DNA from: Clostridia bacterium
GTDB lineage: Bacteria > Bacillota > Clostridia > Oscillospirales > Acutalibacteraceae
Assembly (NCBI GenBank): GCA_017442225.1
Contig: JAFSAR010000010.1
Location: 30,306 to 94,305, forward strand
Reading direction: 5' to 3'
DNA length: 64,000 bases
Part shown: positions 44,589-64,000 of the stretch, one piece after another
How the letters are laid out: every line of letters starts with the position of its first letter
Numbering within the stretch: the stretch's first letter is position 1
Notes under the pieces: generated by a model
The model's input: only the letters and a program-made list of their open reading frames with translations
What the model was told of the DNA's origin: nothing
Databases searched by the model: none
Made by a program: the position numbers and the translations under genes

Positions 44589-44596
44589 GTTTGCAT

Positions 44597-45427: not shown

Positions 45428-45438
45428 GAGGAATTTCT

Positions 45439-46344
45439 ATGAATCTATTAGTCACAGGTGCGTATAATTGCACACAAGAACAACTTAATAGAATTACTGA
45501 AATCGGCAATAATATAGTTTTTCACAAAATGGAAAAAGATGACTTACCTTGTTCTTATGATTGGGTAGAGGGTGTCATTTGTAACGGTTTGTTCCTGCAT
45601 CATCCCATTGAAAAATTTACTAATTTGAGGTTTATACAACTTACGAGTGCTGGCTATGATCGAGTTGATATGAATTATGTAAACGAGCATGATATTCAAA
45701 TATTTAATGCACGTGGTGTTTATAGTATACCAATGGCAGAATTCGCGGTGTGCGGTGTGCTTGATCTTTATAAACAAAGCAGATTTTTTTACGATAATCA
45801 AAAGCAACATCGTTGGGACAAGCACCGTGGACTTTTTGAACTTTTTGGTAAAACAGTGTGTATTGTAGGCAGTGGAAATGTTGGTACTGAGTGCGCAAAA
45901 CGCTTTAAAGCATTTGATACAACAGTTTACGCAGTAGATATTTGTAAGCCGCAAAGCGAAATATACGATAAATATTTTTCGCTTGAAAAAATAACCGATG
46001 CAATAAGTCAATCTGATGTTATAGTTTTAACACTTCCGCTTACTGAACAAACAAAATATATGTTTGATAAAAAAATGTTTTTATATTTTAAGTCAAATGC
46101 AATTTTAGTAAATATTGCTCGTGGAGCAATTGTAAATCAAGATGATTTAATTAATGCTTTGAATAATAAGCAACTTTATGGCGCGGTTTTAGATGTTTTT
46201 GAAACCGAACCACTCCAAGCCGACAGTCCGCTTTGGGATATGCCAAATGTAATTATTACTCCACACAATAGTTTTGTTGGGGAGGGTAATATGCAAAGAT
46301 TAACAAATATAATTTTATATAATCTGGAGATGTATAACAGATGA
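45439..46344 (+). CDS. D-isomer-specific 2-hydroxyacid dehydrogenase, NAD-binding
   Basis: GSGNVGTECAKR Rossmann motif and catalytic R (NIARG), E (FETEP) and H (TPH). Confidence 0.88.
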   Translation: MNLLVTGAYNCTQEQLNRITEIGNNIVFHKMEKDDLPCSYDWVEGVICNGLFLHHPIEKFTNLRFIQLTSAGYDRVDMNYVNEHDIQIFNARGVYSIPMAEFAVCGVLDLYKQSRFFYDNQKQHRWDKHRGLFELFGKTVCIVGSGNVGTECAKRFKAFDTTVYAVDICKPQSEIYDKYFSLEKITDAISQSDVIVLTLPLTEQTKYMFDKKMFLYFKSNAILVNIARGAIVNQDDLINALNNKQLYGAVLDVFETEPLQADSPLWDMPNVIITPHNSFVGEGNMQRLTNIILYNLEMYNR

Positions 46345-47942: not shown

Positions 47943-47959
47943 ATTATTGAGGTGTTATT

Positions 47960-49066
47960 TTGAAATTCGTTTTAATTTCTCCCAAAAACCGAACTGTTTA
48001 TAATTTCCGTGGTGATCTTATAAAAGAGATTATTAGTAGAGGATATGAGGTAATTGTAACCGGTCCTGACAGTATTGATGTGGATAAAATAACTGCTTTG
48101 GGTGCAAGATTTGTTGAAATACCCATGAACAAAAATGGTACAAGTATTTTAGGAGACATCAAATATTGCAAAAATTTATATAAATTGTTTAAAAATGAAA
48201 AACCAGATATTACATTGGGCTATACCGTAAAACCTGTTGTGTATGGTGCAATTGCGGCAAAATTTGCAGGTGTAAAAAATATAAACAGTATGGTTACTGG
48301 TGGTGGTTATACCTTTACTGCCAAAACATTTAAGGCAAAGATTTTAGGCCTTATTGTTAGATGTTTATACAAAATTGGTTTTTCAAAAGCCAATAACGTA
48401 ATTTTTCAAAATTCAGATGATCTTAATGAGTTTTGCGACAGGAAGTTGGTTAAGCGCGACAAGTGCAATGTAGTAAATGGTTCGGGTGTTAATACTTCGC
48501 ACTTTTTACCGACTGATTATCCACAAACAACTACGTTTTTTATGCTTTCAAGATTGCTTAAAAGTAAGGGTGTTGTCGAGTATCTTGAAGCGGCAAAAAT
48601 TGTAAAAACAAGATATCCAGAAGTGCGCTTTTGTCTGCTTGGTAAATATGAAACAAATATGCAGGACGCTTTGTCAAAAGAATATGTTGAGACGTTTATT
48701 GCAGATGGTGTTATAGAACGATTCGAAGAAACAAACGATGTAAGGCCATATTATGCTGATTGTAGCGTGTATGTTTTGCCATCTTATCGAGAGGGTACAC
48801 CGCGCACGGTGCTTGAAGCAATGGCGATGGGCAGACCAATCATTACTACCGATACAAACGGCTGTAGAGATACTGTTATTGATGGAAAAAATGGTTTTTT
48901 AGTGACGATTGGTAATAGTAGTCAGCTTGCAGATGCAATGATTAAATTTGTTGAAAATGCTGAATTGATTAAAACAATGGGTGAAGAAAGTGTTATTTAC
49001 TGCCACCAGAAATTTAATGTTAATAAAGTTAATTGTGATATGATTAATATTTTGGGGGTGTCGTAA
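47960..49066 (+). CDS. Glycosyltransferase family 4 (GT-B)
   Basis: EGTPRTVLEAMAMGRPIITTD..G E(x7)E-type motif. TTG start with GAGGTG RBS. Confidence 0.85.
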   Translation: MKFVLISPKNRTVYNFRGDLIKEIISRGYEVIVTGPDSIDVDKITALGARFVEIPMNKNGTSILGDIKYCKNLYKLFKNEKPDITLGYTVKPVVYGAIAAKFAGVKNINSMVTGGGYTFTAKTFKAKILGLIVRCLYKIGFSKANNVIFQNSDDLNEFCDRKLVKRDKCNVVNGSGVNTSHFLPTDYPQTTTFFMLSRLLKSKGVVEYLEAAKIVKTRYPEVRFCLLGKYETNMQDALSKEYVETFIADGVIERFEETNDVRPYYADCSVYVLPSYREGTPRTVLEAMAMGRPIITTDTNGCRDTVIDGKNGFLVTIGNSSQLADAMIKFVENAELIKTMGEESVIYCHQKFNVNKVNCDMINILGVS

Positions 49067-49067
49067 T

Positions 49068-50144
49068 TTGCAAAAACCACTACAACGAAATAATAACATT
49101 GAAATTTTAAGAATAATAGCAATGTTTATGATTATTGCCGGTCACGCTATAACGCATACAGATATTTATGACAATGTTGGTGAAATTAATTTTTATTTTG
49201 TAAAATTTTTTGATATTGTTTTTAATGTTGCTACAAACGTTTATGTAGTTATTTCAGGCTATTTGTTATGTGAAAAAACTTTTAAGATCAAAAAGGTTTT
49301 TAATTTGTGGTTTCAGATTTTATTTTATTCTGTAATCATTTATCTTGTTTTAGTTGCAACTAAACAAATAGAATTTAGTTTAACAAGCATCGTTAAAGTT
49401 TTGATGCCTGTTTCCGGAAATCAGTATTGGTTTGCTCGGGTATATTTAGGATTATATATTTTATCTCCATTTTTAAATCTTCTTATAAAAAGTTTAAATC
49501 AAAAACAATTTCAATGCCTTTTGGTTGTTTTGACAATACTTTTTTCTTTGTGGGGAAGTTTTATACCATTTGCAACGACGCTTAATGCCGAGGGCGGAAA
49601 CAGTATAATTTGGTTTTGTGTTTTATATATGTTTGCTGCATATATAAGAATTTATGGAGTACCACTAAAGTCAAACAAGGCTTTAATTGGTTTGACAATG
49701 TCGTTTTTTGTATTTGCTTTTTTATCAAGCGTTGTGCTCGAAAAGCTATCATTAATGATTGGACTTGGCGGTAAGGGTGCCAGTCAGTTTACAACCTTTA
49801 ATTCATTTACTATGTTGTTTGGTGCTGTTGGCCTTTTATGCATAGCTGTGAAGCTACCACACATAAATAAATTCAGCAAAGTAATACAATGGTTTTCATT
49901 AAGTACATTTAGTGTATATTTAATTCACGATAACAAATATTTAAGACATATTTTATGGGAATTTTTGAGAATCGATGATCTTGCGGATGAATTTTATATA
50001 GTTCCATATATTTTGTTAACTTCTGTAGCAATATTTGTTGTATGCGCATGTTTGGATAAAGTTATTTATATACCATTAAATAAATTTGTTTCAAAAATTA
50101 GTTTCAAAAAATTACAATCAAAAATAGATTCTTATATAATATAA
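49068..50144 (+). CDS. Acyltransferase family 3 membrane protein (probable O-acetyltransferase)
   Basis: NNNIEILRIIAMFMIIAGH N-terminus and about 10 TM helices. Confidence 0.8.
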   Translation: MQKPLQRNNNIEILRIIAMFMIIAGHAITHTDIYDNVGEINFYFVKFFDIVFNVATNVYVVISGYLLCEKTFKIKKVFNLWFQILFYSVIIYLVLVATKQIEFSLTSIVKVLMPVSGNQYWFARVYLGLYILSPFLNLLIKSLNQKQFQCLLVVLTILFSLWGSFIPFATTLNAEGGNSIIWFCVLYMFAAYIRIYGVPLKSNKALIGLTMSFFVFAFLSSVVLEKLSLMIGLGGKGASQFTTFNSFTMLFGAVGLLCIAVKLPHINKFSKVIQWFSLSTFSVYLIHDNKYLRHILWEFLRIDDLADEFYIVPYILLTSVAIFVVCACLDKVIYIPLNKFVSKISFKKLQSKIDSYII

Positions 50145-50165
50145 AGAAAAAAGGAGTAATTTATT

Positions 50166-51485
50166 ATGTCACTTTATGAGAAAATTGTTAATGGGGAAGA
50201 AAAAATTTCGCTTGTAGGTCTTGGTTACGTTGGTATGCCTATAGCCGTATCTTTTGCAAAAAAGGTTAAGGTTGTCGGCTTTGACCTTAACGCCAAAAAG
50301 ATTGAGCTTTACAAGTCGGGCATTGACCCTACAAACGAAGTAGGCGATGAAGTTATTAAAAACACTACCGTTGAGTTTACTGCTGATGAATCAAAGCTTC
50401 GTGAAGCAAAATTCCATATTGTTGCTGTACCTACCCCTGTAAATGACGACCATACGCCCGATTTAACACCTGTTGAGGGCGCTTCAACAATAGTTGGTCG
50501 CAACATTACCAAAGGCTCAATTGTAGTTTATGAGTCTACTGTTTACCCCGGTGTTACCGAGGATATTTGTATTCCGATTTTGGAACGCGAATCGGGTCTT
50601 AAATGCGGTGTGGACTTTAAGGTTGGTTATAGCCCTGAGCGTATTAACCCGGGCGACAAGGTTCACCGCCTTGAAACAATTGTTAAAATTGTAAGCGGTA
50701 TGGACGAAGAATCACTCGAGGAAATTGCTAACGTTTACGAGCTTGTTGTTGAGGCAGGCGTTCATCGCGCCGAAAGCATCAAGGTTGCTGAGGCTGCAAA
50801 GGTAATCGAAAATAGCCAACGTGATATTAACATTGCCTTTATGAACGAGCTTTCTATTATCTTTAATAAAATGGGTATTGATACACAGTCGGTACTTAAG
50901 GCTGCAGGCACAAAATGGAATTTCTTAAAGTTTTATCCGGGTCTTGTTGGCGGTCACTGTATAGGTGTTGACCCATATTACCTTACATACAAGGCAGAAC
51001 AGCTTGGTTATCACAGCCAAATTATTCTCTCAGGTCGTCGTATAAATGATGATATGGGCAAGTACGTTGCTGAAAGTGTTGTTAAAAATCTTATAAAAGC
51101 TGATTTGCCAATTAAGAATGCAAAGGTTGCGATTTTGGGCTTTACTTTCAAAGAAAATTGCCCCGATACCCGCAACACAAAGATTATTGATATTTATAAC
51201 GAGCTTAAAGAGTATGGTATAACTGCAACTGTTGCTGACCCCGCGGCAGATGCCGATGAAGCCGAGCACCTTTACGGTATGAAATTTGTAGATATTTCTA
51301 CCATTAAAGATTGTGATGTGGTTATACTTGCCGTTGCTCATGAACAGTTTAAGTCGCTTACACAAGCTGATTTTGACAAAATGTTCAAATCAGTTGAGAA
51401 TAACAAAAAGGTTCTTGCAGACATTAAAGGTTTGCTTAACCGTAAAGAATATGAAACTGCTGGCTATAATTATTGGAGATTATAA
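50166..51485 (+). CDS. UDP-N-acetylhexosamine 6-dehydrogenase (TviB/WbpO-like nucleotide sugar dehydrogenase)
   Basis: Collinear with my recollection of Salmonella TviB: GLGYVGMP, VPTPV..PDLTP, VVYESTVYPG, GYSPERINPGDK, ESIKVAEAAKVIEN.QRD and GLVGGHCIGVDPYYL. Confidence 0.88.
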   Translation: MSLYEKIVNGEEKISLVGLGYVGMPIAVSFAKKVKVVGFDLNAKKIELYKSGIDPTNEVGDEVIKNTTVEFTADESKLREAKFHIVAVPTPVNDDHTPDLTPVEGASTIVGRNITKGSIVVYESTVYPGVTEDICIPILERESGLKCGVDFKVGYSPERINPGDKVHRLETIVKIVSGMDEESLEEIANVYELVVEAGVHRAESIKVAEAAKVIENSQRDINIAFMNELSIIFNKMGIDTQSVLKAAGTKWNFLKFYPGLVGGHCIGVDPYYLTYKAEQLGYHSQIILSGRRINDDMGKYVAESVVKNLIKADLPIKNAKVAILGFTFKENCPDTRNTKIIDIYNELKEYGITATVADPAADADEAEHLYGMKFVDISTIKDCDVVILAVAHEQFKSLTQADFDKMFKSVENNKKVLADIKGLLNRKEYETAGYNYWRL

Positions 51486-51502
51486 TTTTTTAGAGGAATT
51501 TT

Positions 51503-53029
51503 ATGTCAAAGAGTAGAAATTTATTAAAATCAATAACACATTCACTTGGGAATGGTGCATACAAGAAAAAATTAAGAAAAAAACCAGAACTGTTCTTTAC
51601 GTTAAGACAGATTTGTGAGAATGTCGGCTTAAATTTAGAAAATCTTGATGATGTTGTTAGAATAAATTTGGACAAAACAGTTTCATATGTATGTCGTTAT
51701 GGTGACCGCTTTACAAAAGATTGTATTTGTGTTCAATTATATGATGATAGCGATAACATAATGAAAAAAGCTATAAGTGAAGGCGCCCTGGTTTGTGTGA
51801 CCGACCACAAAATAGAGGGCTTGCCATGTATAATTGTTGATAATCCATATGCCACTTATGCTGATATGTGTAGTATTATACGCGATACAGCACAGATAAA
51901 ATCAACTGTTATTGTTGGAAGTATCGGTAAAACAACAACAAAAAAAATGGTTGCATCGGTTTATAAACAAGCATTTAACACCCATTGTGATTCTGGAAAT
52001 GATAACATACTTGACAGTATAGGATCTATTTGTCAGCATATTCCTGCAAAATCAGAACAATTAGTTGCTGAGATTAGTGAGGATACGCCTGGACTTATTG
52101 AACAAATGTCAAAAATCGTTAAACCAGAAATTGCTATTATAACGACTATTGATAAATCTCATATTGAATTTTACGGAAGTGAAGAAAACATTTTTAATGA
52201 ATTTCGTTCTGTAACAAAACATATGCGCGAAGATGGTATATGCATTATGAGTATGGATGAAGAAAATGCTAGGAGCCTTATAGAAAATAGAAAGGTTGTA
52301 TTCGTTTCTGTTAATGACGAAAATGCTGATTTTTTTGCTGCTAATATTAATGTTGATACCGAAGGATTAAATTTTGATATTATTGAAAAGGCAACTCAAA
52401 AAACATATGCTATTAAGCTTTATAATTCTTATGCAATACATAATGTTACAGCGGCATTAATAGCTTTTGCAGCCGGTGTTGTAAATGGTATTGACTATAA
52501 TAAAATCGTTAACGGTCTTGCATCTTACAGAGCTACCGGAATTCGCCAAAATATATATAATGCTGGTAGTAAAATCGTTTACGCTGATTGTTATAATGCA
52601 GTAGCAAAGTCGGTTCGTTCTGCAGTAAATGCAGCATGTGATATTCCTATTAAAGGTAAAAGGATAGCAGTTTTAGGCGATATTGCCGAAGCAGGAGATT
52701 ATACAGAATCAACGCATATGGAAATAGCAGAAATTGTTAATAATTCTGATTTTGATATTCTATTAACCTTTGGTGAAGAGTTAAAAAAGGCTATTTCAAA
52801 TACCACGATGAGAAACGATCTCACCATTATGATGTTTGAAACACAAAAAGATATGAATAAAGCATTAAAAAAGATGTTAAAAAAAGGCGATCTTGTTTTG
52901 TTTAAAGCAAGTCACAGGGCAAATCTTGAAGCTTCTATTGCAAGTGTATTTACGCTTTCATATTTATATCAATCAATAAAATATTATACTCCGCGAATTT
53001 TATGGCATTTTAAAGTTATATTAAATTAA
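51503..53029 (+). CDS. Mur ligase family protein, MurF-like (divergent N-terminal domain)
   Basis: P-loop VGSIGKTTTKKM, AEISEDTPGLIEQMSKIVKPEIAIITTIDKSHIEFYGS (MurF GEI..L..PD..VITNI..AHLE.FGS block), DCYNA, VLGDIAEAGDY...H and the C-terminal GDLVLFKASHR. The MurF N-terminal DSR and DGH motifs are not recognisable. Confidence 0.75.
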   Translation: MSKSRNLLKSITHSLGNGAYKKKLRKKPELFFTLRQICENVGLNLENLDDVVRINLDKTVSYVCRYGDRFTKDCICVQLYDDSDNIMKKAISEGALVCVTDHKIEGLPCIIVDNPYATYADMCSIIRDTAQIKSTVIVGSIGKTTTKKMVASVYKQAFNTHCDSGNDNILDSIGSICQHIPAKSEQLVAEISEDTPGLIEQMSKIVKPEIAIITTIDKSHIEFYGSEENIFNEFRSVTKHMREDGICIMSMDEENARSLIENRKVVFVSVNDENADFFAANINVDTEGLNFDIIEKATQKTYAIKLYNSYAIHNVTAALIAFAAGVVNGIDYNKIVNGLASYRATGIRQNIYNAGSKIVYADCYNAVAKSVRSAVNAACDIPIKGKRIAVLGDIAEAGDYTESTHMEIAEIVNNSDFDILLTFGEELKKAISNTTMRNDLTIMMFETQKDMNKALKKMLKKGDLVLFKASHRANLEASIASVFTLSYLYQSIKYYTPRILWHFKVILN

Positions 53030-53043
53030 GAGAGGTTATAATT

Positions 53044-54018
53044 ATGGGTTATAAACATCTAAAGTTTCCTGAAAATACTTTGTTTTTGGTAACAGGTGCT
53101 GCCGGTTTTATTGGTAGCAACCTATGCGAAGCAATACTTGATTTAGGTTATAAGGTTCGTGCCTTAGATGACTTTTCAACAGGTAAGCAAGCAAATGTCG
53201 ATTTGTTTCTTGATAATCCAAACTATGAGTTTATCAAAGGTGATATCAAAGATTTAGATACTTGTATGAAAGCATGCGAAGATGTAGATTTTGTGCTTAA
53301 TCAAGCAGCTTGGGGCAGTGTACCTCGTAGCCTTGAAATGCCTATTTTCTACTGTCGCAACAATATTGAAGGCACCCTTAATATGTTAGAGGCTGCTCGT
53401 CAATGTGGTGTTAAAAAGTTTGTTTATGCTTCAAGTTCTTCCGTTTATGGTGATGAGCCTAATCTTCCTAAAACCGAGGGAAGAGAGGGTAACCTTTTGT
53501 CACCATATGCTCTTACAAAACGCTGTGATGAAGAGTGGGCAAAGCTTTATACAATGCATTATGGACTTGATACCTACGGTATGCGTTATTTTAACGTGTT
53601 TGGTCGTCGTCAGGATCCTGATGGTGCATACGCGGCTGTTATTCCTAAATTCTTAAAGATGCTACTTCACGGCGAAAAACCAACTATAAATGGTGATGGC
53701 AAACAAAGTCGTGACTTTACATACATTGATAACGTTATCGAGGCTAACTTAAAAGCTTGTCTTGCGCCACACGAGGCGGCAGGCGAGGCATATAACATAG
53801 CCTATGGTGGTCGTGAGTATCTTATTGATATTTACTACGGTCTTACCAAGGCTTTGGGTGTTGATATCGAGCCAAACTTTGGCCCTGATCGTAAGGGTGA
53901 TATTAAACACTCTAACGCAGACATTAGCAAAGCAAAACGTCTCCTCGGCTACGACCCTGATTACAGCTTTACTGACGGTATAAAACTTGCTATAGAGTGG
54001 TATAAGGAGAACTTATAA
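53044..54018 (+). CDS. UDP-N-acetylhexosamine(uronic acid) 4-epimerase (TviC/WbpP-like SDR)
   Basis: VTGAAGFIGSN, AAWGSVPRS, SSSSVYGD, SPYALTK, RYFNVFGRRQDP.GAYAAVIP and GDGKQSRDF are collinear with TviC/WbpP as I recall them. Confidence 0.88.
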   Translation: MGYKHLKFPENTLFLVTGAAGFIGSNLCEAILDLGYKVRALDDFSTGKQANVDLFLDNPNYEFIKGDIKDLDTCMKACEDVDFVLNQAAWGSVPRSLEMPIFYCRNNIEGTLNMLEAARQCGVKKFVYASSSSVYGDEPNLPKTEGREGNLLSPYALTKRCDEEWAKLYTMHYGLDTYGMRYFNVFGRRQDPDGAYAAVIPKFLKMLLHGEKPTINGDGKQSRDFTYIDNVIEANLKACLAPHEAAGEAYNIAYGGREYLIDIYYGLTKALGVDIEPNFGPDRKGDIKHSNADISKAKRLLGYDPDYSFTDGIKLAIEWYKENL

Positions 54019-55838
54019 TGAGTGGTATTTGCGGATTTATTGACATCAGCAAAAAATTTAATAAAGAAGATATGCTGAATGCGATTACCGCAATGAATTC
54101 GGCATTATATGCTTCTAATGACGGTTATATATATCAGGATGATGATTGTATAATTGGTAAAAGTGATAATTACGCTGACAACGATTCATTCATTGTCTTT
54201 TTTTACGGCGAACTCTATAATAAGCAATCTTTATGTAAAATTTACGATTTTACTGCAAATAATGAGGCACAACTTGTCTTGGCAGGTTATGAAAAATTCG
54301 GTGACGATTTTTTTAAGCAGTTAAGCGGCAAGTTTGTATTTGTAATTTACGACAAAAAAACAAAAAAACTTACTGTTATTCGCGACAAGGTCGGCTCAAA
54401 GCAAATGTATTATTATAAAAATGAAGATTGCTTTGTTTTTTGTACTGAACTTGCCGGATTGCTTGCAACAAATATTGTACCAAAAAAAATCGACAAAGTA
54501 TCTCTATCACAGTTTTTGCAACTTACCTATATACCGGCTCCTCAGTGTATTATAGAAAATGTAAAAAAGGTTAAGCCGGCTGTTGTTTTCTGCTTGGATT
54601 CATACGCCAATATTTTTGAAAATGATTATTGGACACTTACACATTCTATTGATGAAAAGTACACTGATTTTGAAGTATGTAAAGCCGAACTTAATGATTT
54701 GCTTTATGCATCGGTAAAAGAAAAAATGGCATTGTATCCTGATTCAGGTGCATTTTTAAGTGGTGGTTTTGATTCGTCGATTGTTGTTAGTGTAATGTCG
54801 GATATTTCTGACACACCTATAAGAACCTTTACAATCGGTTATGATGAAAAGCAATTTGATGAAAGCGAGCTTGCAGGGTTGGTTGCCAAAAAAAACAATA
54901 CCAATCACACAGTTCTTAATTTAGATTGGGATGCTGTTGTTGACAATATAGATACCGTTTTAAATGGTGTTGACGAGCCATATGGCGATTCTTCACTTAT
55001 TGCTACGTATGCCGTATGTAAGCTTGCTAAAGAGCATACAGACGTTGCTTTTATGGGTGATGCGGGTGATGAGCTTTTTGCCGGATACAACAAATATTTA
55101 ATTTCTTATTATGGTGGTAAGTATAAAAAAATACCCAAATTTTTACGCAAGGGTATAATCGAACCTATTTCAAAACTTCTTCCACGCAAAAGTAGTCTAT
55201 ACCGTAAGGTTAACAAGGTTATTTCTTCTGCAGATATGCCAATATTTGAACAAAGAAAACGACTTATGAGTCTTGGATTTAAAGCAGAAGAATTAAAAAA
55301 GCTTATGCTTGACGGTTATGTTGACTCGATGAATTTTATTAAGGAAAACTATGAGTTTTTAGAGAATTCTGATGAGCAAACCCGCGCGCAGTATGTTGAT
55401 TTTAAGACAGTTTTAGAGGGTGATATGCTACCAAAGGTAGAGCTTGCAAGTCGTCTATCAGGTCTTAAGACGTGTGCTCCAATTTTAGATGATAAAATTA
55501 TTGATTTTGCATATAGCATACCAACTGATTTTAAAATTAACAAAACCAACAGGAAGATTATTTTAAAAGAAACGTTCAGACATCTTTTGCCCGAAGAATT
55601 GTTTACAGCACCCAAGCATGGTTTTGCAGTGCCGATAGGCAATTGGCTTGAAACAAATTTAAAAGATAAGCTTTTGAAATTTGCGAGTAAAGATTTTCTC
55701 GAAAAACAAGGCCTGTTCAACTATGACTATATAAATATGATAATCGATGAACATTTTAATCATAAAAAGAACAGATATAGTGAGTTGTGGGCGTTTTTTG
55801 TTTTTCAGAATTGGTATAAAAAATATATTGAACAATAA
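54018..55838 (+). CDS. Asparagine synthetase B-family amidoligase with atypical N-terminus and a degenerate glutaminase domain
   Basis: PP-loop AFLSGGFDSS, GDAGDELFAGY and L.GKFVFVIYD..L.VIRDKVG..MYY blocks. The N-terminus is MSGICGF rather than MCG. The start ATG shares one nt with the upstream stop (TAATG). Confidence 0.85.
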   Translation: MSGICGFIDISKKFNKEDMLNAITAMNSALYASNDGYIYQDDDCIIGKSDNYADNDSFIVFFYGELYNKQSLCKIYDFTANNEAQLVLAGYEKFGDDFFKQLSGKFVFVIYDKKTKKLTVIRDKVGSKQMYYYKNEDCFVFCTELAGLLATNIVPKKIDKVSLSQFLQLTYIPAPQCIIENVKKVKPAVVFCLDSYANIFENDYWTLTHSIDEKYTDFEVCKAELNDLLYASVKEKMALYPDSGAFLSGGFDSSIVVSVMSDISDTPIRTFTIGYDEKQFDESELAGLVAKKNNTNHTVLNLDWDAVVDNIDTVLNGVDEPYGDSSLIATYAVCKLAKEHTDVAFMGDAGDELFAGYNKYLISYYGGKYKKIPKFLRKGIIEPISKLLPRKSSLYRKVNKVISSADMPIFEQRKRLMSLGFKAEELKKLMLDGYVDSMNFIKENYEFLENSDEQTRAQYVDFKTVLEGDMLPKVELASRLSGLKTCAPILDDKIIDFAYSIPTDFKINKTNRKIILKETFRHLLPEELFTAPKHGFAVPIGNWLETNLKDKLLKFASKDFLEKQGLFNYDYINMIIDEHFNHKKNRYSELWAFFVFQNWYKKYIEQ

Positions 55839-55840
55839 GG

Positions 55841-56662
55841 ATGGATATGATGAAACAAGGACATATTTCAGTCATTATGGCAACCTATAATTGTGCCGAT
55901 ACTTTACGTCAAAGTGTTGATTCGGTTTTGGCACAAACGTACACGGATTATAAATTTATAATTTGTGATGATTGCTCTACTGATGATACATACTCAATAT
56001 TAAAACAGTATGAGGCTGATTATCCCGATAAGTTTTTGATAATTAAAAATGAAAAAAATTCAAAGTTGCCATTTTCGCTTAATCATTGCTTAAAATATGC
56101 TGATGGTGAATATTGTGCGCGTATGGACGGTGACGATTATATCGCGCCTGACCGTTTTGAAAAGCAGGTAGAGTTTTTAAAAAATAATCCCGACATACAG
56201 CTTGTTGGTTGTGCGTTGCAGACATTTGATGACAAAAAGGGTATGGGTAGGATAATATATTGTCGTGAATACCCCGAAAAACTCCATCTTTTAGATGCTC
56301 CTTGTTTTCCGCATGCAGCAATTATGACCTATACAAGTGTGTATAATGCTCTTGGCGGATACACTGTATCGAAGCGAACTGTGCGTTCACAGGATTATGA
56401 TCTTTGGTTTAGGTTTTTTGCCAAAGGCTTTAAAGGTGCAAATTTGCAAGAACCTCTTTACTTTATGCGTGAAGATGAATTTTCCTTCCTTAGAAGGAAA
56501 CCTCGACTCTACTTATGGCTTATGGTAACTAAATGGAAAGGTTATCGTTTGCTAAAATTTCCGCTTAAATATTATTGGCACATTTTATTACCGCTTGTTG
56601 CTCTTTTTAGAAATGAAACAAGAAAACTGAAGGCAAAAACGTCTCTAAAAAGTAAAAAATAA
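55841..56662 (+). CDS. Glycosyltransferase family 2
   Basis: ISVIMATYNCADTLRQSVDSVLAQTY..FIICDDCSTDDT and DGDD (DxD). The start could be the ATG at 55847 or 55850. Confidence 0.88.
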   Translation: MDMMKQGHISVIMATYNCADTLRQSVDSVLAQTYTDYKFIICDDCSTDDTYSILKQYEADYPDKFLIIKNEKNSKLPFSLNHCLKYADGEYCARMDGDDYIAPDRFEKQVEFLKNNPDIQLVGCALQTFDDKKGMGRIIYCREYPEKLHLLDAPCFPHAAIMTYTSVYNALGGYTVSKRTVRSQDYDLWFRFFAKGFKGANLQEPLYFMREDEFSFLRRKPRLYLWLMVTKWKGYRLLKFPLKYYWHILLPLVALFRNETRKLKAKTSLKSKK

Positions 56663-56691
56663 AATTTAAAGTTTTTTGGTGATTTGATTTT

Positions 56692-57783
56692 ATGATTTCT
56701 TATATTATTGTTTTTTTTATTGTTGGTGTGTTTGCCTGGCTTGCAGAAAAAAGTCACAAAGAAGTTACCGATCTTACAGGCGATGTTCTACATAAAAAAA
56801 CAACAAGTACAATTATATTTTTAATTATTGCCGGCGGACTGCTTACTGCTATGGCAGGTCTGCGTTATCACGTTGGTACAGACTATAAAAACTATATTTA
56901 TTTATATGAAACTTTTTATTCAAAACAAAGTTTAAAAGAGCTTTTGGTTATTGATAATGAACCAATGTTACCGATTATTGGCCATTTTTCACATAAGTTT
57001 TTTGATTCATATTATGCTATGTTCTTTTTTGCTTCCGTCATCTCGGTCGGTATAGTTATTTATAGCACTTACACAGAAACTACAGATTTTCTTTATACAA
57101 CAATGCTTTACATTTTTGCCGGCGGTTTTGTTGGTTCGTTCAATGGCATTAGGCAATTTATGGCGGTTGCAATTGTGTTTTTAGGTAGGCGTTTTATTGT
57201 AGAACGTAAGTTTTGGAAATATCTTTTGGTTTGCTTTATTGCTTTTTTGGCGCATAAATCTGCACTGTTTTGTATTTTGTTCTATTTTGTTTATACTAAA
57301 AAATTCTCTACAAAGCGACTCTTAATAATACTTATAATTACAATATTCTTCTCTATTAATTATGAAACTATATTTGATTTTATTGGATGGATGAATGATG
57401 CTGAATTTGTTGCAGATGCATACGCATCAACAAGTGTTAATGTGTTCAGAACATTAGTTGGTTGTTGTCCTGCTATAATGGGTCTTTATTTTGCATATAA
57501 CAAAAAGGATTTAGATGACCAACAAGTATTTTATATTTATATATTAGTTATTAATGCTGCAACGCGTATAGTAACATCTGATAGTGCATATCTCGCACGT
57601 CTTGCGTGTTATCCTACGGTTTTTGTACCGCTGGGTCTTGGCTATCTAACTGACCTTTGCAGTCAAAAGTATTATAAGGTATTTAGAGCGGGAATTTTGA
57701 TTTTGTATATGGCTTTTTGGTTATATGAAGTATTAAATACAAAAACATTACGCGAATTTGAATGGATTTTTGGAAATATGTAA
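56692..57783 (+). CDS. EpsG-family membrane protein (Wzy-like polymerase candidate)
   Basis: About 10 TM helices and the GLRYHVGTDYKNY motif typical of the EpsG family. Confidence 0.75.
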   Translation: MISYIIVFFIVGVFAWLAEKSHKEVTDLTGDVLHKKTTSTIIFLIIAGGLLTAMAGLRYHVGTDYKNYIYLYETFYSKQSLKELLVIDNEPMLPIIGHFSHKFFDSYYAMFFFASVISVGIVIYSTYTETTDFLYTTMLYIFAGGFVGSFNGIRQFMAVAIVFLGRRFIVERKFWKYLLVCFIAFLAHKSALFCILFYFVYTKKFSTKRLLIILIITIFFSINYETIFDFIGWMNDAEFVADAYASTSVNVFRTLVGCCPAIMGLYFAYNKKDLDDQQVFYIYILVINAATRIVTSDSAYLARLACYPTVFVPLGLGYLTDLCSQKYYKVFRAGILILYMAFWLYEVLNTKTLREFEWIFGNM

Positions 57784-57806
57784 TTTGTATTTGGGGTGAA
57801 ATGATT

Positions 57807-58733
57807 ATGAATAATTTAAAAATTTTGGTTGTTATGGGTGGTACCTCTTCAGAACGCGAAGTTTCACTTCGTAGCGGACAAGCGGTATATGATGCACTAG
57901 TGCGAGTAGGCTATAATGTTGAAAAATTTATTCTTAATGAAAATAATGTTTGTGGAATCATAGATATTAAGCCTGATTTATGCGTATTAGCATTGCATGG
58001 TAAGGGCGGTGAAGATGGTACGATTCAGGGTATGCTTGAGCTCGCCGGTATTAAATACACAGGTTCTGGAATAGCAAGTAGCGCTAATTGTATGAATAAA
58101 ATTCTTACTAAAAAATTATTGCAAATTAATGGAATACCTACACCACAATACGCTGTTATTAATAAAGGTGAAAATGTTATTGACTTTGTTGATTATATAC
58201 TTACAAAATTTGATTTTCCCCTTGTGGTTAAAGCACCGTGTCAAGGCTCTAGTGTAGGTGTTGAAATAGCTCACAATAAAGAACTACTTATAAAATCAAT
58301 TGAAAATAACATTGATTATGATGGTGAAATTCTTATAGAAGAGTTTATAAATGGTACTGAACTTACTGTTCCTGTTATGCGTGAAAATAACAATGTTATT
58401 TCGCTACCAATAGTTGAAATTGTTTCTGAAAATTCTTTTTATGATTTCGAATCAAAATATACAACCGGAATGAGTCGTCACATCATACCGGCAAGAATTT
58501 CTAATGATGCAAGTGATAAAATAAATAAATATGCTATAGATGCATATAAAGCCTTATCTTGCAAGGGTGTTGCACGTATTGATTTTTTTATTGACAAAGA
58601 CGATAATCCTTATGTAATAGAAATTAATACTCTTCCAGGAATGACAGCAACAAGCCTTGTTCCAGATTCGGCAAAAGCAGCCGGAATATCTTTTGATGAA
58701 CTTGTTAATATGATCGTTATGCAAGCATTATAG
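57807..58733 (+). CDS. ddl: D-alanine--D-alanine ligase (DdlB-type ATP-grasp)
   Basis: KILVVMGGTSSEREVSLRSG, LHGKGGEDGTIQG, the FYDFESKYT omega-loop region with Tyr retained and EINTLPGMT. ATG at 57807 preferred. Confidence 0.9.
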   Translation: MNNLKILVVMGGTSSEREVSLRSGQAVYDALVRVGYNVEKFILNENNVCGIIDIKPDLCVLALHGKGGEDGTIQGMLELAGIKYTGSGIASSANCMNKILTKKLLQINGIPTPQYAVINKGENVIDFVDYILTKFDFPLVVKAPCQGSSVGVEIAHNKELLIKSIENNIDYDGEILIEEFINGTELTVPVMRENNNVISLPIVEIVSENSFYDFESKYTTGMSRHIIPARISNDASDKINKYAIDAYKALSCKGVARIDFFIDKDDNPYVIEINTLPGMTATSLVPDSAKAAGISFDELVNMIVMQAL

Positions 58734-58764
58734 ATTATTTCATTGTTGACATAAGGAGATTTAT

Positions 58765-59715
58765 ATGAGTATAAAAAATTTTTTACGAAATGTATTATAT
58801 AAAAATGGTATTGGTAAATCAATATGGTATACTTTGCATACAATTAATATTAATGTTCTTCGCGTGTTACCGAATGAAACTTATTTTAAACGTGCTTACA
58901 AAAAAACGCATGGCGTAGATCCTAATTTTAAAGATCCACAAACATTTGACGAAAAGCAATTGTGGCTTAAGATGAACTATCGCAACCCGCTTTGTACAAA
59001 ATGCTCAGATAAATATCTTGTCAGAGAATACATAAAAGAGTGCGGATTAGAGCATATTCTTAATCCAATATACGGTGTGTATGATTCTGTAGATGACATA
59101 AAGTGGGAAGAACTTCCAGATAGATTTTATATTAAAGCAAATCATATGAGTGCTTGTAACGTGCGTTGTAATAATCTTGCAACATTTGAAAAAAAAACGG
59201 CTGTAAAAAAACTTGCTCGTGGTATGAAGCATGATTACTCACTTGACTCAAGAGAATGGAATTATCACGATATCGACCGTAAAATTATTGCAGAAGCAAT
59301 AATTGAAAATCAGGATGGATCTGGACTTATAGATTATCGATTTTTGTGTAGTTATGGAAATTGCGACTATCTGTTTGTTGACATTGATACTGCTGATGAA
59401 AACGGAACCCACAGAACGGATGCAAGAAGAAACGTTTACGATAAAGATTTTAATTTGATGGATGTTAAGGTTTCTAGACCTAATTTTGAACCGTCTTTTA
59501 TTTCAAAACCTAGTAACTTTGATGAAATGCTTAAATATGCTCAAATTTTAAGTAAGCCATTTCCATTTTGCAGAGTTGATTTTTATAATGTCGATGGCAA
59601 AATCATTTTTGGTGAAATAACATTTTTCCATGCAGGCGGACTCAGTAAGGTAACGCCAAAAGAATGGGAAATTAAACTTGGCGATATCATTAATCTTAAA
59701 GAGCTTTTAAAATAA
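58765..59715 (+). CDS. TupA-like ATP-grasp fold amidoligase family protein
   Basis: About 316 aa. DPQTFDEKQLWLKM, DKYLVREYI, FYIKANHMS, DYRF and CRVDFY..DGKIIFGEITF match the TupA-like ATP-grasp family layout as I remember it. Confidence 0.7.
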   Translation: MSIKNFLRNVLYKNGIGKSIWYTLHTININVLRVLPNETYFKRAYKKTHGVDPNFKDPQTFDEKQLWLKMNYRNPLCTKCSDKYLVREYIKECGLEHILNPIYGVYDSVDDIKWEELPDRFYIKANHMSACNVRCNNLATFEKKTAVKKLARGMKHDYSLDSREWNYHDIDRKIIAEAIIENQDGSGLIDYRFLCSYGNCDYLFVDIDTADENGTHRTDARRNVYDKDFNLMDVKVSRPNFEPSFISKPSNFDEMLKYAQILSKPFPFCRVDFYNVDGKIIFGEITFFHAGGLSKVTPKEWEIKLGDIINLKELLK

Positions 59716-59729
59716 AATCGGAGTTAATT

Positions 59730-60839
59730 ATGGTTAGAATTTTACATGTGGTTGGCACTATGGATTTGGGTGGTGCCGAGACCTTTATTATGAACTTGTA
59801 TAGAAAAATTGATCGCGAGAAGGTTCAATTTGATTTTTTATGTCATAATCGTATTGAAGCCAAATATACAGATGAGATTTTGTCTATGGGTGGCAAAATG
59901 TATATGGTAGAGGGTATATCTCACGTAGGTTTTTTAAAATATGAAAAGAGTTTATACAACTTTTTTAAATCGCACCCCGAATACCAGGTTGTTCACTCGC
60001 ATCAAAACGATTTAAACGGTCTTATTTTAAAGCAGGCGGCACGTGCAGGCGTAAAGGTGCGTGTTTCACATTCTCATACTGAATATCATTACAAAAGTTT
60101 TCAAAGAAAGGCTTTGTTTGCCTTTTTTAAGTATAATGTTAATCGCTATACTACCGATGCATTTGCGTGTTCAAAGCCTTCGGGTAATATGCTATATACC
60201 GGTAAACTGAAAAAAAACTTTGACGTGATCTATAACGGTATTGATACGAATAGATTTGCTTATAGTGCTGAAAAAGGTCAAACGATAAAAGATGAGTTTA
60301 ACCTCAGCAATGGGCCGATAATTGGACATGTTGGTAGATTTGCACCCGTTAAAAATCATACGTTTATAATTGATATTTTTAATGAGTTTTTAAAGCTTTA
60401 TCCTAATGCAAAACTTGTGTTAGTGGGTACAGGAGACACACTTGTTCAAACAAAAGATAAGGTAAAGACTCTGGGTATTGAGAAAAGTATTTTGTTTTTA
60501 GGCTTAAGGACAGATGTTGACAGTATTTTAAGTGCTATAAATATATTTTTATTTCCTTCTATCCACGAGGGATTGCCGTTGTCTGTTGTCGAGGCACAGT
60601 GTTCGGGGCTAAAGGTTATTACTTCTGATACAATATCAGAGGATACAGTTATTACCGATTTAATAACACGTATGCCTTTAAGCTGTTCTGCAAAGCAATG
60701 GGCAGAAAAGCTAGACGAACTTTACGTTAATTCAAAATCTGTAGATAGAAGTATATATGCAAATGTAGTTAACAATGCAGGTTTTGGCTCAAAGCAAATT
60801 GCAAAAACTTTGGTTGATAGATATTTAAAAAAGTTATAA
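59730..60839 (+). CDS. Glycosyltransferase family 4 (EpsF-like, GT-B)
   Basis: RILHVVGTMDLGGAETFIMNLYR N-terminus and EGLPLSVVEAQCSGLKVITSD. Confidence 0.88.
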   Translation: MVRILHVVGTMDLGGAETFIMNLYRKIDREKVQFDFLCHNRIEAKYTDEILSMGGKMYMVEGISHVGFLKYEKSLYNFFKSHPEYQVVHSHQNDLNGLILKQAARAGVKVRVSHSHTEYHYKSFQRKALFAFFKYNVNRYTTDAFACSKPSGNMLYTGKLKKNFDVIYNGIDTNRFAYSAEKGQTIKDEFNLSNGPIIGHVGRFAPVKNHTFIIDIFNEFLKLYPNAKLVLVGTGDTLVQTKDKVKTLGIEKSILFLGLRTDVDSILSAINIFLFPSIHEGLPLSVVEAQCSGLKVITSDTISEDTVITDLITRMPLSCSAKQWAEKLDELYVNSKSVDRSIYANVVNNAGFGSKQIAKTLVDRYLKKL

Positions 60840-60854
60840 GGAGCGAAATTAATA

Positions 60855-61721
60855 ATGCGACTTGGGCAAATAGTTTGGCAACTTGCTATTAGAAAGTTGC
60901 CTCAAGGCGCCATTTTGACAGATAAAAAGACACCATTTATAGCAGTACCAAATCCAATTGGAATGTGGGCTGCAGATCCATTTATTTTAGAAAAAGATAA
61001 TAAGGTCTATATTTTTGCTGAGTTGTTTTCTTTGTCACAATGGCGCGGAAAGTTAGGCTATTGTGTTTATGAAAACAATAAATTCTCAAAATGGAATATA
61101 ATTTTTGATGATGAACACCACTATTCGTATCCTAATGTGTTCGAAAAAAACGGTGAAATTTTTATGATGCCCGAAACAGGTTCTATAAACGAGATTGCTA
61201 TTTACAAAGCCGTTGATTTTCCGTCAAAATGGGAAAAACAGTCAGTGATTTTAAGCGGTGAAAAAATGGTTGATTCAGTTTTTATATCTGATGATACTAT
61301 TTTAAGTTATAAAATGTTTGGCAATTTTAAAAATCATCTTGTTTTACTTAAAAAAGAAAATAATGATTGGTATCAGGTTGCAAACATTGTTGATAGTCAG
61401 GAGATTAAGCGTCCGGCAGGTAAGATTTTTTCATGCGGAGCAGGCTTTGTCAGACCTGCGCAAGATGGTCGTAGTTTATATGGCGGAGCAATTAAGTTTT
61501 TTGATTGCGGTGACATAGCAAATGATATTAATAGCGAAAAAGAAATTCTTGATTTGCAACCTTGTGAAATTGTTGTTAAAAATTTAAATAAAGAATTTGT
61601 TGGTACACATACATACAATTCCATTTCTAACTTTGAAATTGTTGATGTCCAATATTACAAGTTTTCGTTTATTGGCTTGTTCAAAAGAATTTTTATAAAA
61701 TTATCAAAACGCAGGAGATAA
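60855..61721 (+). CDS. Hypothetical protein, possibly a beta-propeller (GH43/GINT1 N-terminal-like) fold
   Basis: WAADPFIL..K.YIFAE and YPNVFEKNGEIFMMPE resemble glycoside hydrolase-like propeller blades. The assignment is weak. Confidence 0.4.
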   Translation: MRLGQIVWQLAIRKLPQGAILTDKKTPFIAVPNPIGMWAADPFILEKDNKVYIFAELFSLSQWRGKLGYCVYENNKFSKWNIIFDDEHHYSYPNVFEKNGEIFMMPETGSINEIAIYKAVDFPSKWEKQSVILSGEKMVDSVFISDDTILSYKMFGNFKNHLVLLKKENNDWYQVANIVDSQEIKRPAGKIFSCGAGFVRPAQDGRSLYGGAIKFFDCGDIANDINSEKEILDLQPCEIVVKNLNKEFVGTHTYNSISNFEIVDVQYYKFSFIGLFKRIFIKLSKRRR

Positions 61722-61724
61722 TTT

Positions 61725-62810
61725 ATGAATATATGCTTTTTTACCGGAAATATGGGCAACGGTGGTGGTACTGAAAAAATGACTCAGCTACTATCGTCTG
61801 AATTTTGTGAAAACCAAAATGACAACATTTTTGTTCTTACAAAATCGAACATAAAAATAGAACCGTATTTTACACTCGACGAAGATGTAAAATACAGTAT
61901 TTTAGATAACGGTAAATATGTTAAGATTTTTTCTTTGATTAAAGATGTTTTTTTGCTTGCAAAATATATTAAAAATAATAATATTGATGTTTTAATCAAC
62001 GTTGATGTTTCTTTAGGCGTTTTTTCTTTACCGCTAAAAATTCTTTGTCCCAAACTTAAGCAAATTTATTGGGAGCACTTTAGTGTTTTATATAACATAA
62101 ACAATAAACGAACAAACAAGCTTAGAAAAAAAGCGTTAAAATATGGTGATGCATACGTTGTATTAACACCACAAGATGCAAATGAGCTTAAACACACGTA
62201 TAAAAAAATTAATGCTAAATTATTAGACATACCTAACATTTCTACATATCAAATATCTGATACAAAATATAATTTGGCATCCAAAACAATTTTGTCTGTT
62301 GGAAATTTAATTAAAGTAAAAGGTTTTGATTTGGCAATAGAAGCTGCTTCAAAAATTTTTGAAAAACATCCTGATTGGTGTTGGCATATCTATGGTGATG
62401 GTAGTGATGGCGATGAATTTAAACAGATGGTAAAAAATTTATCACTTGACGATAATATTAAATTCATGGGCAGAACAAACAATTTAACAAAGGCTTATTC
62501 TGAATCAGCAATTTTTGTCTTGCCATCACGAAGTGAAGGTTTTGGACTTGTGCTTATAGAAGCACAGTCGTATCACATACCAACAGTTGCTTTTGATGTA
62601 CCTTTTGGTCCAAGAAACGTTATAACCAATGGTGTTAACGGATTTCTTGTTGAACCTTTTGATACCGATAGTTTAGCAGAAAATGTTTGTAAACTGATAG
62701 AAGATGATAATTTTAGAACAACCTTTTCTGATAATGCTTCAAAGGATCTATATAAATATCAAGCTGATGTTGTTTCAAAGCAGTGGCAAAATTTATTACA
62801 ACAAATATAA
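61725..62810 (+). CDS. Glycosyltransferase family 4 (GT-B)
   Basis: PSRSEGFGLVLIEAQSYHIPTVAFD..GP E(x7)E motif. Confidence 0.88.
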   Translation: MNICFFTGNMGNGGGTEKMTQLLSSEFCENQNDNIFVLTKSNIKIEPYFTLDEDVKYSILDNGKYVKIFSLIKDVFLLAKYIKNNNIDVLINVDVSLGVFSLPLKILCPKLKQIYWEHFSVLYNINNKRTNKLRKKALKYGDAYVVLTPQDANELKHTYKKINAKLLDIPNISTYQISDTKYNLASKTILSVGNLIKVKGFDLAIEAASKIFEKHPDWCWHIYGDGSDGDEFKQMVKNLSLDDNIKFMGRTNNLTKAYSESAIFVLPSRSEGFGLVLIEAQSYHIPTVAFDVPFGPRNVITNGVNGFLVEPFDTDSLAENVCKLIEDDNFRTTFSDNASKDLYKYQADVVSKQWQNLLQQI

Positions 62811-62851
62811 ACAATTTATTCACAATTGCAATTTTAGAAGGTTAATTTAGT

Positions 62852-63868
62852 ATGAATGCACCCTTGGTATCGATAATAATACCGATGTATAACTCACAAG
62901 ATAAAATTAATAAATGTATTAATAGTGTTGTTAAACAAACGTATAAAAAAATAGAAATATTATTGGTTAATGATGGTTCGACCGATAATTCTTTATCAAT
63001 ATGCAATGATATTGCGAAAGCTGATAATCGTATAAAAATTATTGATATTGAAAATCAAGGCGTAAGTGTTGCAAGAAACATAGGAATTCAACAGGCCAAA
63101 GGTGACTATATAATGTTTGTTGACAGCGATGATTATGTTGAAAATACTATTGTCGAAAAGCTGTTAAATAATTTAATTGAAAATGATGCTGATATCAGTC
63201 AATGTGGTTGCAATGTTGCAAATAATAACGGTAAAATTTTAAAAACTTATAATGTTCCTTATTATAATATATTAAATAGGGAAGAAATAATTAAAAAAAT
63301 AGTACTACCATTATTTGGGAAAATTAAGGTTGATTCTGTCGCTATACAAGGCTTTTGTGTCTGTAAATTATTTAAAAAAGATATAATCAATAATATTAGA
63401 TTTAATGTTGAGCAAAGAATATATCAAGATCGTTGCTTTAATATTGATGCATATTTAAATGCACAAAAAACAAGCTTTATTGACGAGCAGTTGTATTATT
63501 ATGTTGTAAATTCCACATCATCTACTCAACGTAAACGTGACGATATTTGGAAACAGTGTACAATTTTGATTGATGCCTTAAACAGTAGAATCGGCTTGCT
63601 TTCAGGTGATTTTAACAGTGAGTTAAAATCACGTATTCATAAAACTGCTTCCACAAGGTTAGTATATGTTACAAGGCATATTTTTAAATATCAATCGGAA
63701 AAAGGCATATTAAATGCGGTTCGGTTTGTTAAACAAATGCGACAAAATTTCATGTTCGATAAAGGAGTATTAAATCCTGATTTGGGATTTGTTTTTAGTG
63801 TATTATCAAAATTATTACATTATAGGCTTTATTTTTTAGCTGTTTTAGTTTCAAAAATTGCAGGTTGA
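62852..63868 (+). CDS. Glycosyltransferase family 2
   Basis: VSIIIPMYNSQDKINKCINSVVKQTY..ILLVNDGSTDNS and DSDD. Confidence 0.88.
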   Translation: MNAPLVSIIIPMYNSQDKINKCINSVVKQTYKKIEILLVNDGSTDNSLSICNDIAKADNRIKIIDIENQGVSVARNIGIQQAKGDYIMFVDSDDYVENTIVEKLLNNLIENDADISQCGCNVANNNGKILKTYNVPYYNILNREEIIKKIVLPLFGKIKVDSVAIQGFCVCKLFKKDIINNIRFNVEQRIYQDRCFNIDAYLNAQKTSFIDEQLYYYVVNSTSSTQRKRDDIWKQCTILIDALNSRIGLLSGDFNSELKSRIHKTASTRLVYVTRHIFKYQSEKGILNAVRFVKQMRQNFMFDKGVLNPDLGFVFSVLSKLLHYRLYFLAVLVSKIAG

Positions 63869-63888
63869 TTAATTAAAGGAGCGTTTTT

Positions 63889-64000
63889 ATGAATCAAACG
63901 ATTCGTCTTGAAGGTGAGTTGTTAAAAAGTGTGCAGCAGACTGAACTTTCTATATTAAAAGATGTTGCTGATTTTTGCGAAGAAAAGGGTATTAATTATT
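63889..64000 (+). CDS. LicD-family phosphotransferase, N-terminal fragment (runs off the right edge)
   Basis: LKSVQQTELSILKDVADFCEEKGINY matches the LicD N-terminal block (LQ..EL.IL..F...C.K..I.Y). AAAGGAG RBS. Confidence 0.6.
   Translation, partial: MNQTIRLEGELLKSVQQTELSILKDVADFCEEKGINY

Follow-up and report, generated by a model that had tools for sequence, protein, structure and literature searches.

An extra, foreign D-alanine–D-alanine ligase within a glycan operon of a gut Clostridia bacterium, and its possible part in glycan decoration

D-alanyl-D-alanine (D-Ala-D-Ala), the product of the D-Ala-D-Ala ligases (Ddl), counts as a hallmark of peptidoglycan precursors, being the donor end in transpeptidation and the target of glycopeptide antibiotics. 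The ddl gene usually stands with murF or among the dcw genes, its pairing with murF being the classic arrangement. Why, then, should such a gene be found among genes for polysaccharide synthesis? This is the question raised by the stretch of DNA analysed here (the window: 64,000 nucleotides (nt) of contig JAFSAR010000010.1, positions 30,306 to 94,305, from the Clostridia bacterium assembly GCA_017442225.1), in which a ddl has neither murF nor dcw genes beside it, its neighbours encoding an EpsG-family polymerase and a TupA-like ATP-grasp enzyme. The initial annotation offered two explanations: either the cell's essential ddl had become embedded in a variable glycan operon, or the gene is a paralogue that feeds a dipeptide to a MurF-like enzyme for decoration. 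We find that the encoded protein, Ddl308, is almost certainly an extra and foreign copy of a canonical Ddl set within a glycan operon. Beyond this, it probably serves that operon rather than peptidoglycan housekeeping, having been acquired horizontally. The gene and its ribosome-binding site are as follows.

57807..58733, forward strand: Ddl308, a DdlB-type D-Ala-D-Ala ligase of 308 amino acids (aa), assigned from family models and catalytic residues
57793..57799, forward strand: Shine-Dalgarno sequence GGGGTGA, 7 nt ahead of the ATG at 57807, read from the sequence

Whether the cell depends on this gene can be judged from the rest of the assembly, which amounts to 1.56 Mb in 25 contigs and is 97% complete. 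A count of ddl homologues, as the initial annotation had proposed, returned two copies, that of the window being the extra one. The second full-length ddl lies on contig C21 (G000:C21:20727-21464; a 351-aa gene in a 352-aa open frame), shares about 33-36% identity with Ddl308 and is directly followed by a gene that scores 418 bits against the murF model TIGR01143 (cut-off 288.6); the two are the housekeeping pair. The proposed phylogeny against the housekeeping enzymes of relatives groups the C21 ddl, at 94% identity, with the one ddl that same-genus genomes carry, and places Ddl308 in a distant, well-supported clade of 28 members. Forcing the two copies of this genome together costs 124.7 log-likelihood units (delta lnL; p-AU 2e-50), and a local duplication of the housekeeping ddl is rejected on this basis. 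Ddl308 is thus neither the sole ddl nor the orthologue of its relatives' housekeeping gene. The reading in which it is the one essential ddl, embedded in a glycan operon, is rejected by copy count and phylogeny alike and retains next to no probability, as a second full-length copy, orthologous to the ddl of relatives, stands beside a true murF.

The distribution and composition of the gene point the same way. Each of 24/24 same-genus genomes yields one ddl match, at no more than 37% identity to Ddl308, and the best identity among 400 same-order genomes (30 families) does not exceed 53%. Relatives at 65-91% identity come from gut metagenome-assembled genomes labelled Acutalibacteraceae, Clostridia or Eubacteriales. 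The G+C content of Ddl308 is 33.0% (18% at third codon positions, GC3), against 44.9% (GC3 40%) for the housekeeping ddl and 41.4% for the genome; the glycan locus as a whole (43974-64000) likewise stands at 33.0%, which bears out the earlier remark that the gene is as AT-rich as its surroundings. On the strength of the second ddl, the trees, the distribution and the G+C content, we conclude that Ddl308 is an extra copy acquired together with the AT-rich glycan locus. The further proposal, to look for the locus in other strains, was pursued in four same-genus genomes, in the stretch 5' of their spo0A: neither an operon gene nor a flank gene turned up there, and the borders of the insertion are not definable because synteny is not conserved in so diverse a genus. 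The heterogeneity of this "genus" is also apparent in its single ddl genes, whose open frames fall into two size classes (352-360 aa in the present genome, G003 and G008, versus about 396-413 aa in the rest) and whose similarity to Ddl308 varies widely (E 1e-50 versus 1e-24 to 1e-30); Spo0A identities of 62-81% agree.

What might such an enzyme produce? The frame at 57807-58733 (forward strand) is stop-free and yields a protein of 308 aa. An alternative start, ATG at 57762, is present in the open reading frame (ORF) listing, and the start at 57807 is favoured because homologues measure 304-312 aa and because of the position of the ribosome-binding site. Ddl308 exceeds the cut-offs of the Pfam models Dala_Dala_lig_C (PF07478; 196.5 bits, cut-off 24) and Dala_Dala_lig_N (PF01820; 74.2 bits, cut-off 34.6), as well as of the NCBIfam models NF002378 (359.5 bits, cut-off 243) and TIGR01205 (322.5 bits, cut-off 245.65). 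The nearest solved structures are all D-Ala-D-Ala ligases (E about 1e-57 to 1e-64), among them 3r23 of Bacillus anthracis (E 1e-63) and Escherichia coli DdlB (2dln/1iov; E 9e-57), and identity to solved Ddl enzymes is 40-45%. In the alignment with 2dln/1iov, the DdlB residues E15, H63, S150, K215, Y216, R255, D257, E270, N272, S281 and L282 are all identical in Ddl308, and the catalytic and substrate residues are conserved throughout its clade. The omega-loop tyrosine (Y216) is the mark of ligases that make D-Ala-D-Ala rather than D-Ala-D-lactate (D-Ala-D-Lac), and it is kept in Ddl308 within the motif FYDFESKYT, whose K-Y aligns with K215-Y216. The specificity for D-Ala-D-Ala that had been expected from this motif agrees with every residue checked, and D-Ala-D-Ala is most likely the product.

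A dedicated copy maintained despite a housekeeping ddl nonetheless invites the thought that its specificity is altered, the product being D-Ala-D-X or some other D-aminoacyl dipeptide that the glycan pathway alone uses, which would explain the separate copy; Ddl enzymes do differ in the tolerance of their second site. This we regard as decidedly unlikely. All of the DdlB residues for D-Ala/D-Ala specificity are kept, and Ddl308 falls far under the cut-off of every Van-type D-Ala-D-Lac or D-Ala-D-Ser (D-serine) model, the best being VanG at 238 bits (cut-off 495). Column-by-column comparison of Ddl clades linked to the gene module described below with stand-alone clades found no active-site column that separates them. 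Position 41 (Phe versus Leu) is the sole column that both module-linked clades share and that differs in the two stand-alone clades; it is not among the catalytic or specificity positions checked, and there is therefore no support in the sequence for a new specificity. The alanine racemase genes co-located in three related loci also point to D-Ala as the substrate. The enzyme itself is ordinary; it is the genomic role that is out of the ordinary.

That role must be sought among the neighbours, of which the principal ones are these.

43974..64000, continuing past the window, forward strand: glycan operon, with a Bac_transf priming transferase first, defined by gene order and gaps
50166..51485, forward strand: UDP-sugar 6-dehydrogenase family enzyme, predicted to make a uronic-acid nucleotide sugar (Pfam UDPG_MGDP_dh N, central and C domains), directly 5' of MurLig508
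51503..53029, forward strand: MurLig508, a MurF-like Mur ligase of 508 aa, closest to the murF model at a score below its cut-off
53044..54018, forward strand: NAD-dependent sugar epimerase (Pfam Epimerase, 207 bits), directly 3' of MurLig508
54018..55838, forward strand: AsnB-type amidotransferase (TIGR03108-like, 362.8 bits)
56692..57783, forward strand: EpsG-family (Wzy-like) polymerase (Pfam PF14897, 154.1 bits), 23 nt 5' of Ddl308
58765..59715, forward strand: TupA-like ATP-grasp amidoligase (Pfam PF14305, 148.9 bits), 31 nt 3' of Ddl308

The operon consists of 22 co-oriented genes spaced -4 to 41 nt apart, Ddl308 being in the middle. The ORF, its family matches and its neighbours agree with the original description of a full-length Ddl between the EpsG polymerase and the TupA-like enzyme, as does the distance of 23 nt from the former; the TupA-like gene is the only one of its kind in the genome. 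The operon opens with Bac_transf (43974), an HpcH-like enzyme, a 2-hydroxyacid dehydrogenase and an AsnB-fold enzyme, and continues with a GT1 glycosyltransferase, an acyltransferase, the UDP-sugar dehydrogenase, MurLig508 and the epimerase. There follow the AsnB amidotransferase, a GT2 glycosyltransferase, EpsG, Ddl308 and the TupA-like ATP-grasp, and then GT1, a GINT1_N-like protein, GT1 and GT2. Past the end of the window lie LicD, a 521-aa protein, a VanZ+NTP_transf_5 protein and finally spo0A. The last operon gene (G000:C9:96528-98312, equivalent to L136:2529-4313) encodes a 594-aa fusion of VanZ-like and NTP_transf_5 parts, and a gene of this type also closes the operon in loci L017 and L041. 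A scan of the operon found no terminator-like sites in the intergenic gaps (four matches, all inside genes) and promoter-like matches at chance level, which fits a single transcription unit and does not prove one. The genome encodes LCP-type ligases outside the operon, and for this reason nothing is concluded on an unusual mode of anchoring.

The locus also has a history of its own. At about 40% G+C, the dehydrogenase and epimerase genes contrast with the MurF-like gene between them (31.7%); the two flanking enzymes are 92-96% identical between loci whose remaining genes are far more diverged, and epimerase copies of 92-95% identity flank the Mur ligase gene in L017, L020 and G491. Both the contrast in G+C and this excess of identity over the other genes suggest that the locus has a mosaic build.

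The most telling neighbour is MurLig508, whose gene is flanked by that of the dehydrogenase predicted to form the uronic acid and by that of the epimerase. It scores 225.5 bits against the murF model TIGR01143, under the cut-off of 288.6, with murC (95 bits) and murD/murE (53-58 bits) as the next-best model types, and its best solved relatives are all MurF. Identity to the genome's true MurF is 26% over an aligned part that begins at residue 82, and the first ~80 residues, a non-canonical N-terminal region, lie outside the MurF match. The family to which it belongs is large, counting 587 proteins at E <= 1e-40, mostly of 505-520 aa. Because MurLig508 scores below the murF cut-off, has an unmatched N-terminus and stands among uronic-acid, glycosyltransferase and polymerase genes, its acceptor is probably a sugar carboxylate and not UDP-MurNAc-tripeptide.

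These observations lead to a proposal built on homology and gene neighbourhood. The reading that we favour, at somewhat better than even confidence, is that Ddl308 provides a dedicated supply of D-Ala-D-Ala for amide ligation onto a glycan by the MurF-like enzyme, the TupA-like enzyme or both. In its more specific form, which we likewise consider a little more probable than its negation, Ddl308 would be the operon's own source of the dipeptide, which MurLig508 would amide-link to a uronic-acid sugar; here we infer D-Ala-D-Ala as the product, MurLig508 as its consumer and the uronic acid as the acceptor. D-Ala would come from the single alanine racemase of the cell (one alr, on contig C1), and Ddl308 would convert it to D-Ala-D-Ala for use by the operon. 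By analogy with MurF acting on UDP-MurNAc-tripeptide, MurLig508 would activate the sugar carboxylate by phosphorylation with ATP, and attack by the amine of the dipeptide would create the amide link. The TupA-like amidoligase might act likewise at a different carboxylate, or it might attach a preceding residue. A precedent for the former exists in Campylobacter jejuni, where the TupA-like domain Cj1438C has been shown experimentally to be an amidoligase whose target is the glucuronate C6 carboxylate (PMC11800379). The end product would be a Wzy-polymerised surface polysaccharide bearing stubs that end in D-Ala-D-Ala.

If Ddl308 and MurLig508 do act together, their genes might be expected to travel together. 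Genomic contexts were fetched for relatives of Ddl and of the MurF-like ligase, and a short Ddl was found adjacent to, or in an operon with, a member of the MurLig508 family in 14 loci, the window included. The two genes share an operon in the window and in L017, L020 and L041; they are adjacent within glycan loci in L051, L053, L054, L055, L069 and G491/L142; and in L018 and L021 the ligase gene lies immediately 5' of ddl as a stand-alone pair outside glycan loci. In L024, a MurF-like ORF 5' of ddl is cut by the contig end. Gene order varies, from MurLig-Ddl-TupA (L051) and TupA-Ddl-MurLig (L053, L054) to MurLig-Ddl (L055, L069, G491/L142) and Ddl-Alr-MurLig (L056). Mur ligase identity is 40-88% over the linked loci, and the ligases of L051, L053-L056, L069 and G491/L142 are 40-55% identical to MurLig508. 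The Ddl proteins of L051, L053, L054, L055, L056 and L069 form a clade apart from that of the window in a tree from which the G491 Ddl (about 49% identical to Ddl308) was left out. Given the separate clades and the differing orders, the linkage spans two Ddl lineages and several arrangements. In L017, L041, L042 and L043 the whole block EpsG-Ddl-TupA-GT1-GINT1_N-GT1 is found again; L020 keeps its order, with no GINT1_N gene detected. A TupA-like gene stands directly 3' of ddl in all five of these and in L051.

Three of the loci bring in a further enzyme, alanine racemase (Alr), inside the module: TupA-Ddl-MurLig-x-Alr in L054 (8124-14006), Ddl-Alr-MurLig in L056 (563-4195) and Mur2-MurLig-Ddl-x-Alr in L069 (2909-9399). 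With the racemase present, the trio of Alr, Ddl and MurF-like ligase mirrors the peptidoglycan route. A Ddl-Alr pair was also seen on the short contig L025. The Alr-Ddl-MurF-like glycan decoration module is a proposal of this analysis and no established family; the window has the Ddl and MurLig508 components, and its operon contains no dedicated alanine racemase. Of the two explanations first offered, it is the paralogue feeding a MurF-like enzyme that gains strong support from the neighbourhood, with 14 linked loci of varying gene order and a racemase in three, and a part in decoration would be its probable function.

The modules vary in ways that deserve record. At the position 3' of the epimerase, the window (54018-55838), L017 and L043 have an AsnB-type amidotransferase, and L020 (7132-8007), L041 (7136-8059) and L042 (6820-7716) a second TupA-like ATP-grasp; this swap looks as though one operon position can be filled by different enzymes that would each amidate a uronic acid in their own way. 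Tandem MurF-like ligase genes, of about 35-37% mutual identity, occur in L069 (2909-6036), L059 (6443-9376) and L061 (2-2578) and suggest that a longer peptide is put together on the glycan step by step. L069 carries, in addition, another ATP-grasp gene as well as one of the octopine-dehydrogenase family, and about 5 kb from its module a gene for a Porin_2/DcaP-like outer-membrane protein (L069:12082-13326), such that this version of the module may reside in a diderm bacterium. In L053 (13927-16167), two genes, one of the octopine-dehydrogenase family and one of PGA_cap (CapA-like) type, belong to the glycan operon of the TupA-Ddl-MurLig trio, which hints at opine-type or poly-glutamate-like additions to that glycan.

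Recurrent linkage has to be set against a simpler account, in which Ddl308 is a passenger: the donor's only housekeeping ddl, by chance situated within or beside the glycan locus, moved along with the operon and now a redundant contributor to the general pool of D-Ala-D-Ala, comparable to the DdlA and DdlB of enterobacteria. The members of its clade in G043 and G044 are the only ddl found in those genomes and are each alone beside unrelated genes (preceded in G043 by an aldo-keto reductase gene, in G044 by two genes for ABC transporters), P0040 of a neighbouring clade is also stand-alone, and the active site of Ddl308 is indistinguishable from that of a housekeeping enzyme. A mere passenger would not have kept its tight linkage to MurF-like ligase, TupA-like and alanine racemase genes at 40-88% Mur ligase identity, in varied orders and over two Ddl clades. 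Moreover, at least five genomes keep a module Ddl beside a separate ddl of the long type. The module copy is extra to such a gene in G041, G042, G045 and G491, and in the last three also to a true murF above the family cut-off; in G041, the murF-like neighbour of the housekeeping ddl reaches 225 bits, below the cut-off. The second ddl of G491 is a Ddl C-terminus cut by the contig start, whose discovery led us to drop an earlier view of the module copy as the sole ddl there, and the same caution about copies cut at contig edges applies to the "only ddl" of G043 and G044. Finally, the gene for Ddl308 is intact and has a good ribosome-binding site. On balance, a passenger origin with no glycan-specific function is unlikely, though it is the alternative that we take most seriously.

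Several observations nonetheless weigh against a supply of dipeptide dedicated to the glycan. L050, L052, L057 and L058 have a MurLig508-family ligase and no ddl in the fetched span; the ligase can therefore use the housekeeping pool, or else takes another substrate. Conversely, Ddl is accompanied by TupA-like genes in L042 and L135 with no Mur ligase in the fetched span, and the TupA-like enzyme could accordingly be the consumer of the dipeptide. (In L042, the MurF-like gene is missing between dehydrogenase and epimerase, and a gap of 317 nt (L042:9683-10001), unusually long for this operon, precedes ddl.) G043 and G044, with their stand-alone genes, show that the clade of Ddl308 also holds probable housekeeping copies, and arrival as a passenger is possible on that account. 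The sequencing runs that contain the sequence are exclusively DNA runs of gut metagenomes. In the literature searched, no published polysaccharide with amide-linked D-Ala-D-Ala was found, and nothing relevant on a Ddl or MurF-like gene or enzyme in capsule, O-antigen or exopolysaccharide clusters or in polysaccharide decoration.

A mobile ddl could also be a determinant of resistance, either raising D-cycloserine tolerance or opening, together with the MurF-like ligase, an alternative route to peptidoglycan precursors. Mobile ddl cassettes for D-cycloserine resistance are described (bioRxiv 10.1101/2020.05.09.085589), and the MurLig-Ddl pairs of L018 and L021 stand alone, outside glycan loci. 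The operon of the window has no vanH, vanX, vanRS or integron features; Ddl308 is embedded mid-operon among 22 glycan genes; and MurLig508, below the murF cut-off and with ~80 N-terminal residues unmatched, is flanked by sugar-nucleotide genes. We judge a function in resistance to be very improbable.

What purpose might D-Ala-D-Ala stubs serve, were the favoured supply of dipeptide to a glycan correct? They could be substrates of D,D-transpeptidases, by which the polymer would be cross-linked to peptidoglycan or to itself as a second, murein-like layer, or they could act as decoys for molecules that bind D-Ala-D-Ala. The tandem Mur ligases of L059, L061 and L069 would then build longer peptide stems stepwise. 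We offer these ideas as quite unlikely ones; on D-Ala-D-Ala decoys, the literature searched held nothing relevant.

The decoration of a glycan with D-Ala-D-Ala stubs is not yet described, and the extra Ddl together with its MurF-like neighbour suggests that it occurs. The recurrent module of Ddl, MurF-like and TupA-like genes, with or without Alr, would imply a class of peptide-decorated surface glycans in gut Clostridia, for which the literature searched contained neither a structure nor enzymology of glycans from such modules. If the proposal is true, Mur ligases as a family would have sugar acids among their substrates, and the extra ddl copies that are automatically annotated as cell-wall genes would be explained. 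It would likewise pose testable questions on the anchoring, cross-linking, immune recognition and glycopeptide binding of commensal capsules. For annotation, the practical message is that a "ddl" in these genomes should not be presumed to be the essential copy.

How does this locus compare with known systems? Ddl308 shares with the DdlB-type ligases (E. coli DdlB, 2dln/1iov; B. anthracis Ddl, 3r23) its length class, its two Pfam domains and its catalytic and substrate residues, and differs from these housekeeping enzymes in being a foreign extra copy within a Wzy-type glycan operon. Possession of two ddl genes is familiar from the enterobacteria, which carry DdlA and DdlB as duplicates. Together with the mobile cassettes ddl6/ddl7 (D-cycloserine resistance), they likewise exemplify more than one canonical ddl with one copy mobile; these enzymes, however, all serve peptidoglycan and are not known to be linked to glycan-synthesis, MurF-like or TupA-like genes, whereas Ddl308 is so linked. 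In C. jejuni, the C-terminal domain of Cj1438 has the same TupA-like ATP-grasp fold as the neighbour of Ddl308, but the amines of that system are serinol or ethanolamine derivatives and neither Ddl nor Mur ligase takes part, whereas the amine here would be an amino acid or dipeptide. A further parallel is the Alr-Ddl-MurF route of peptidoglycan itself. Its three enzyme types occur together in L054, L056 and L069, and Ddl with a MurF-like ligase in 14 loci, the present one included. Unlike its counterpart in that route, MurLig508 remains below the murF cut-off, has an N-terminus that MurF does not match, and is surrounded by genes for uronic acids, glycosyltransferases and a polymerase.

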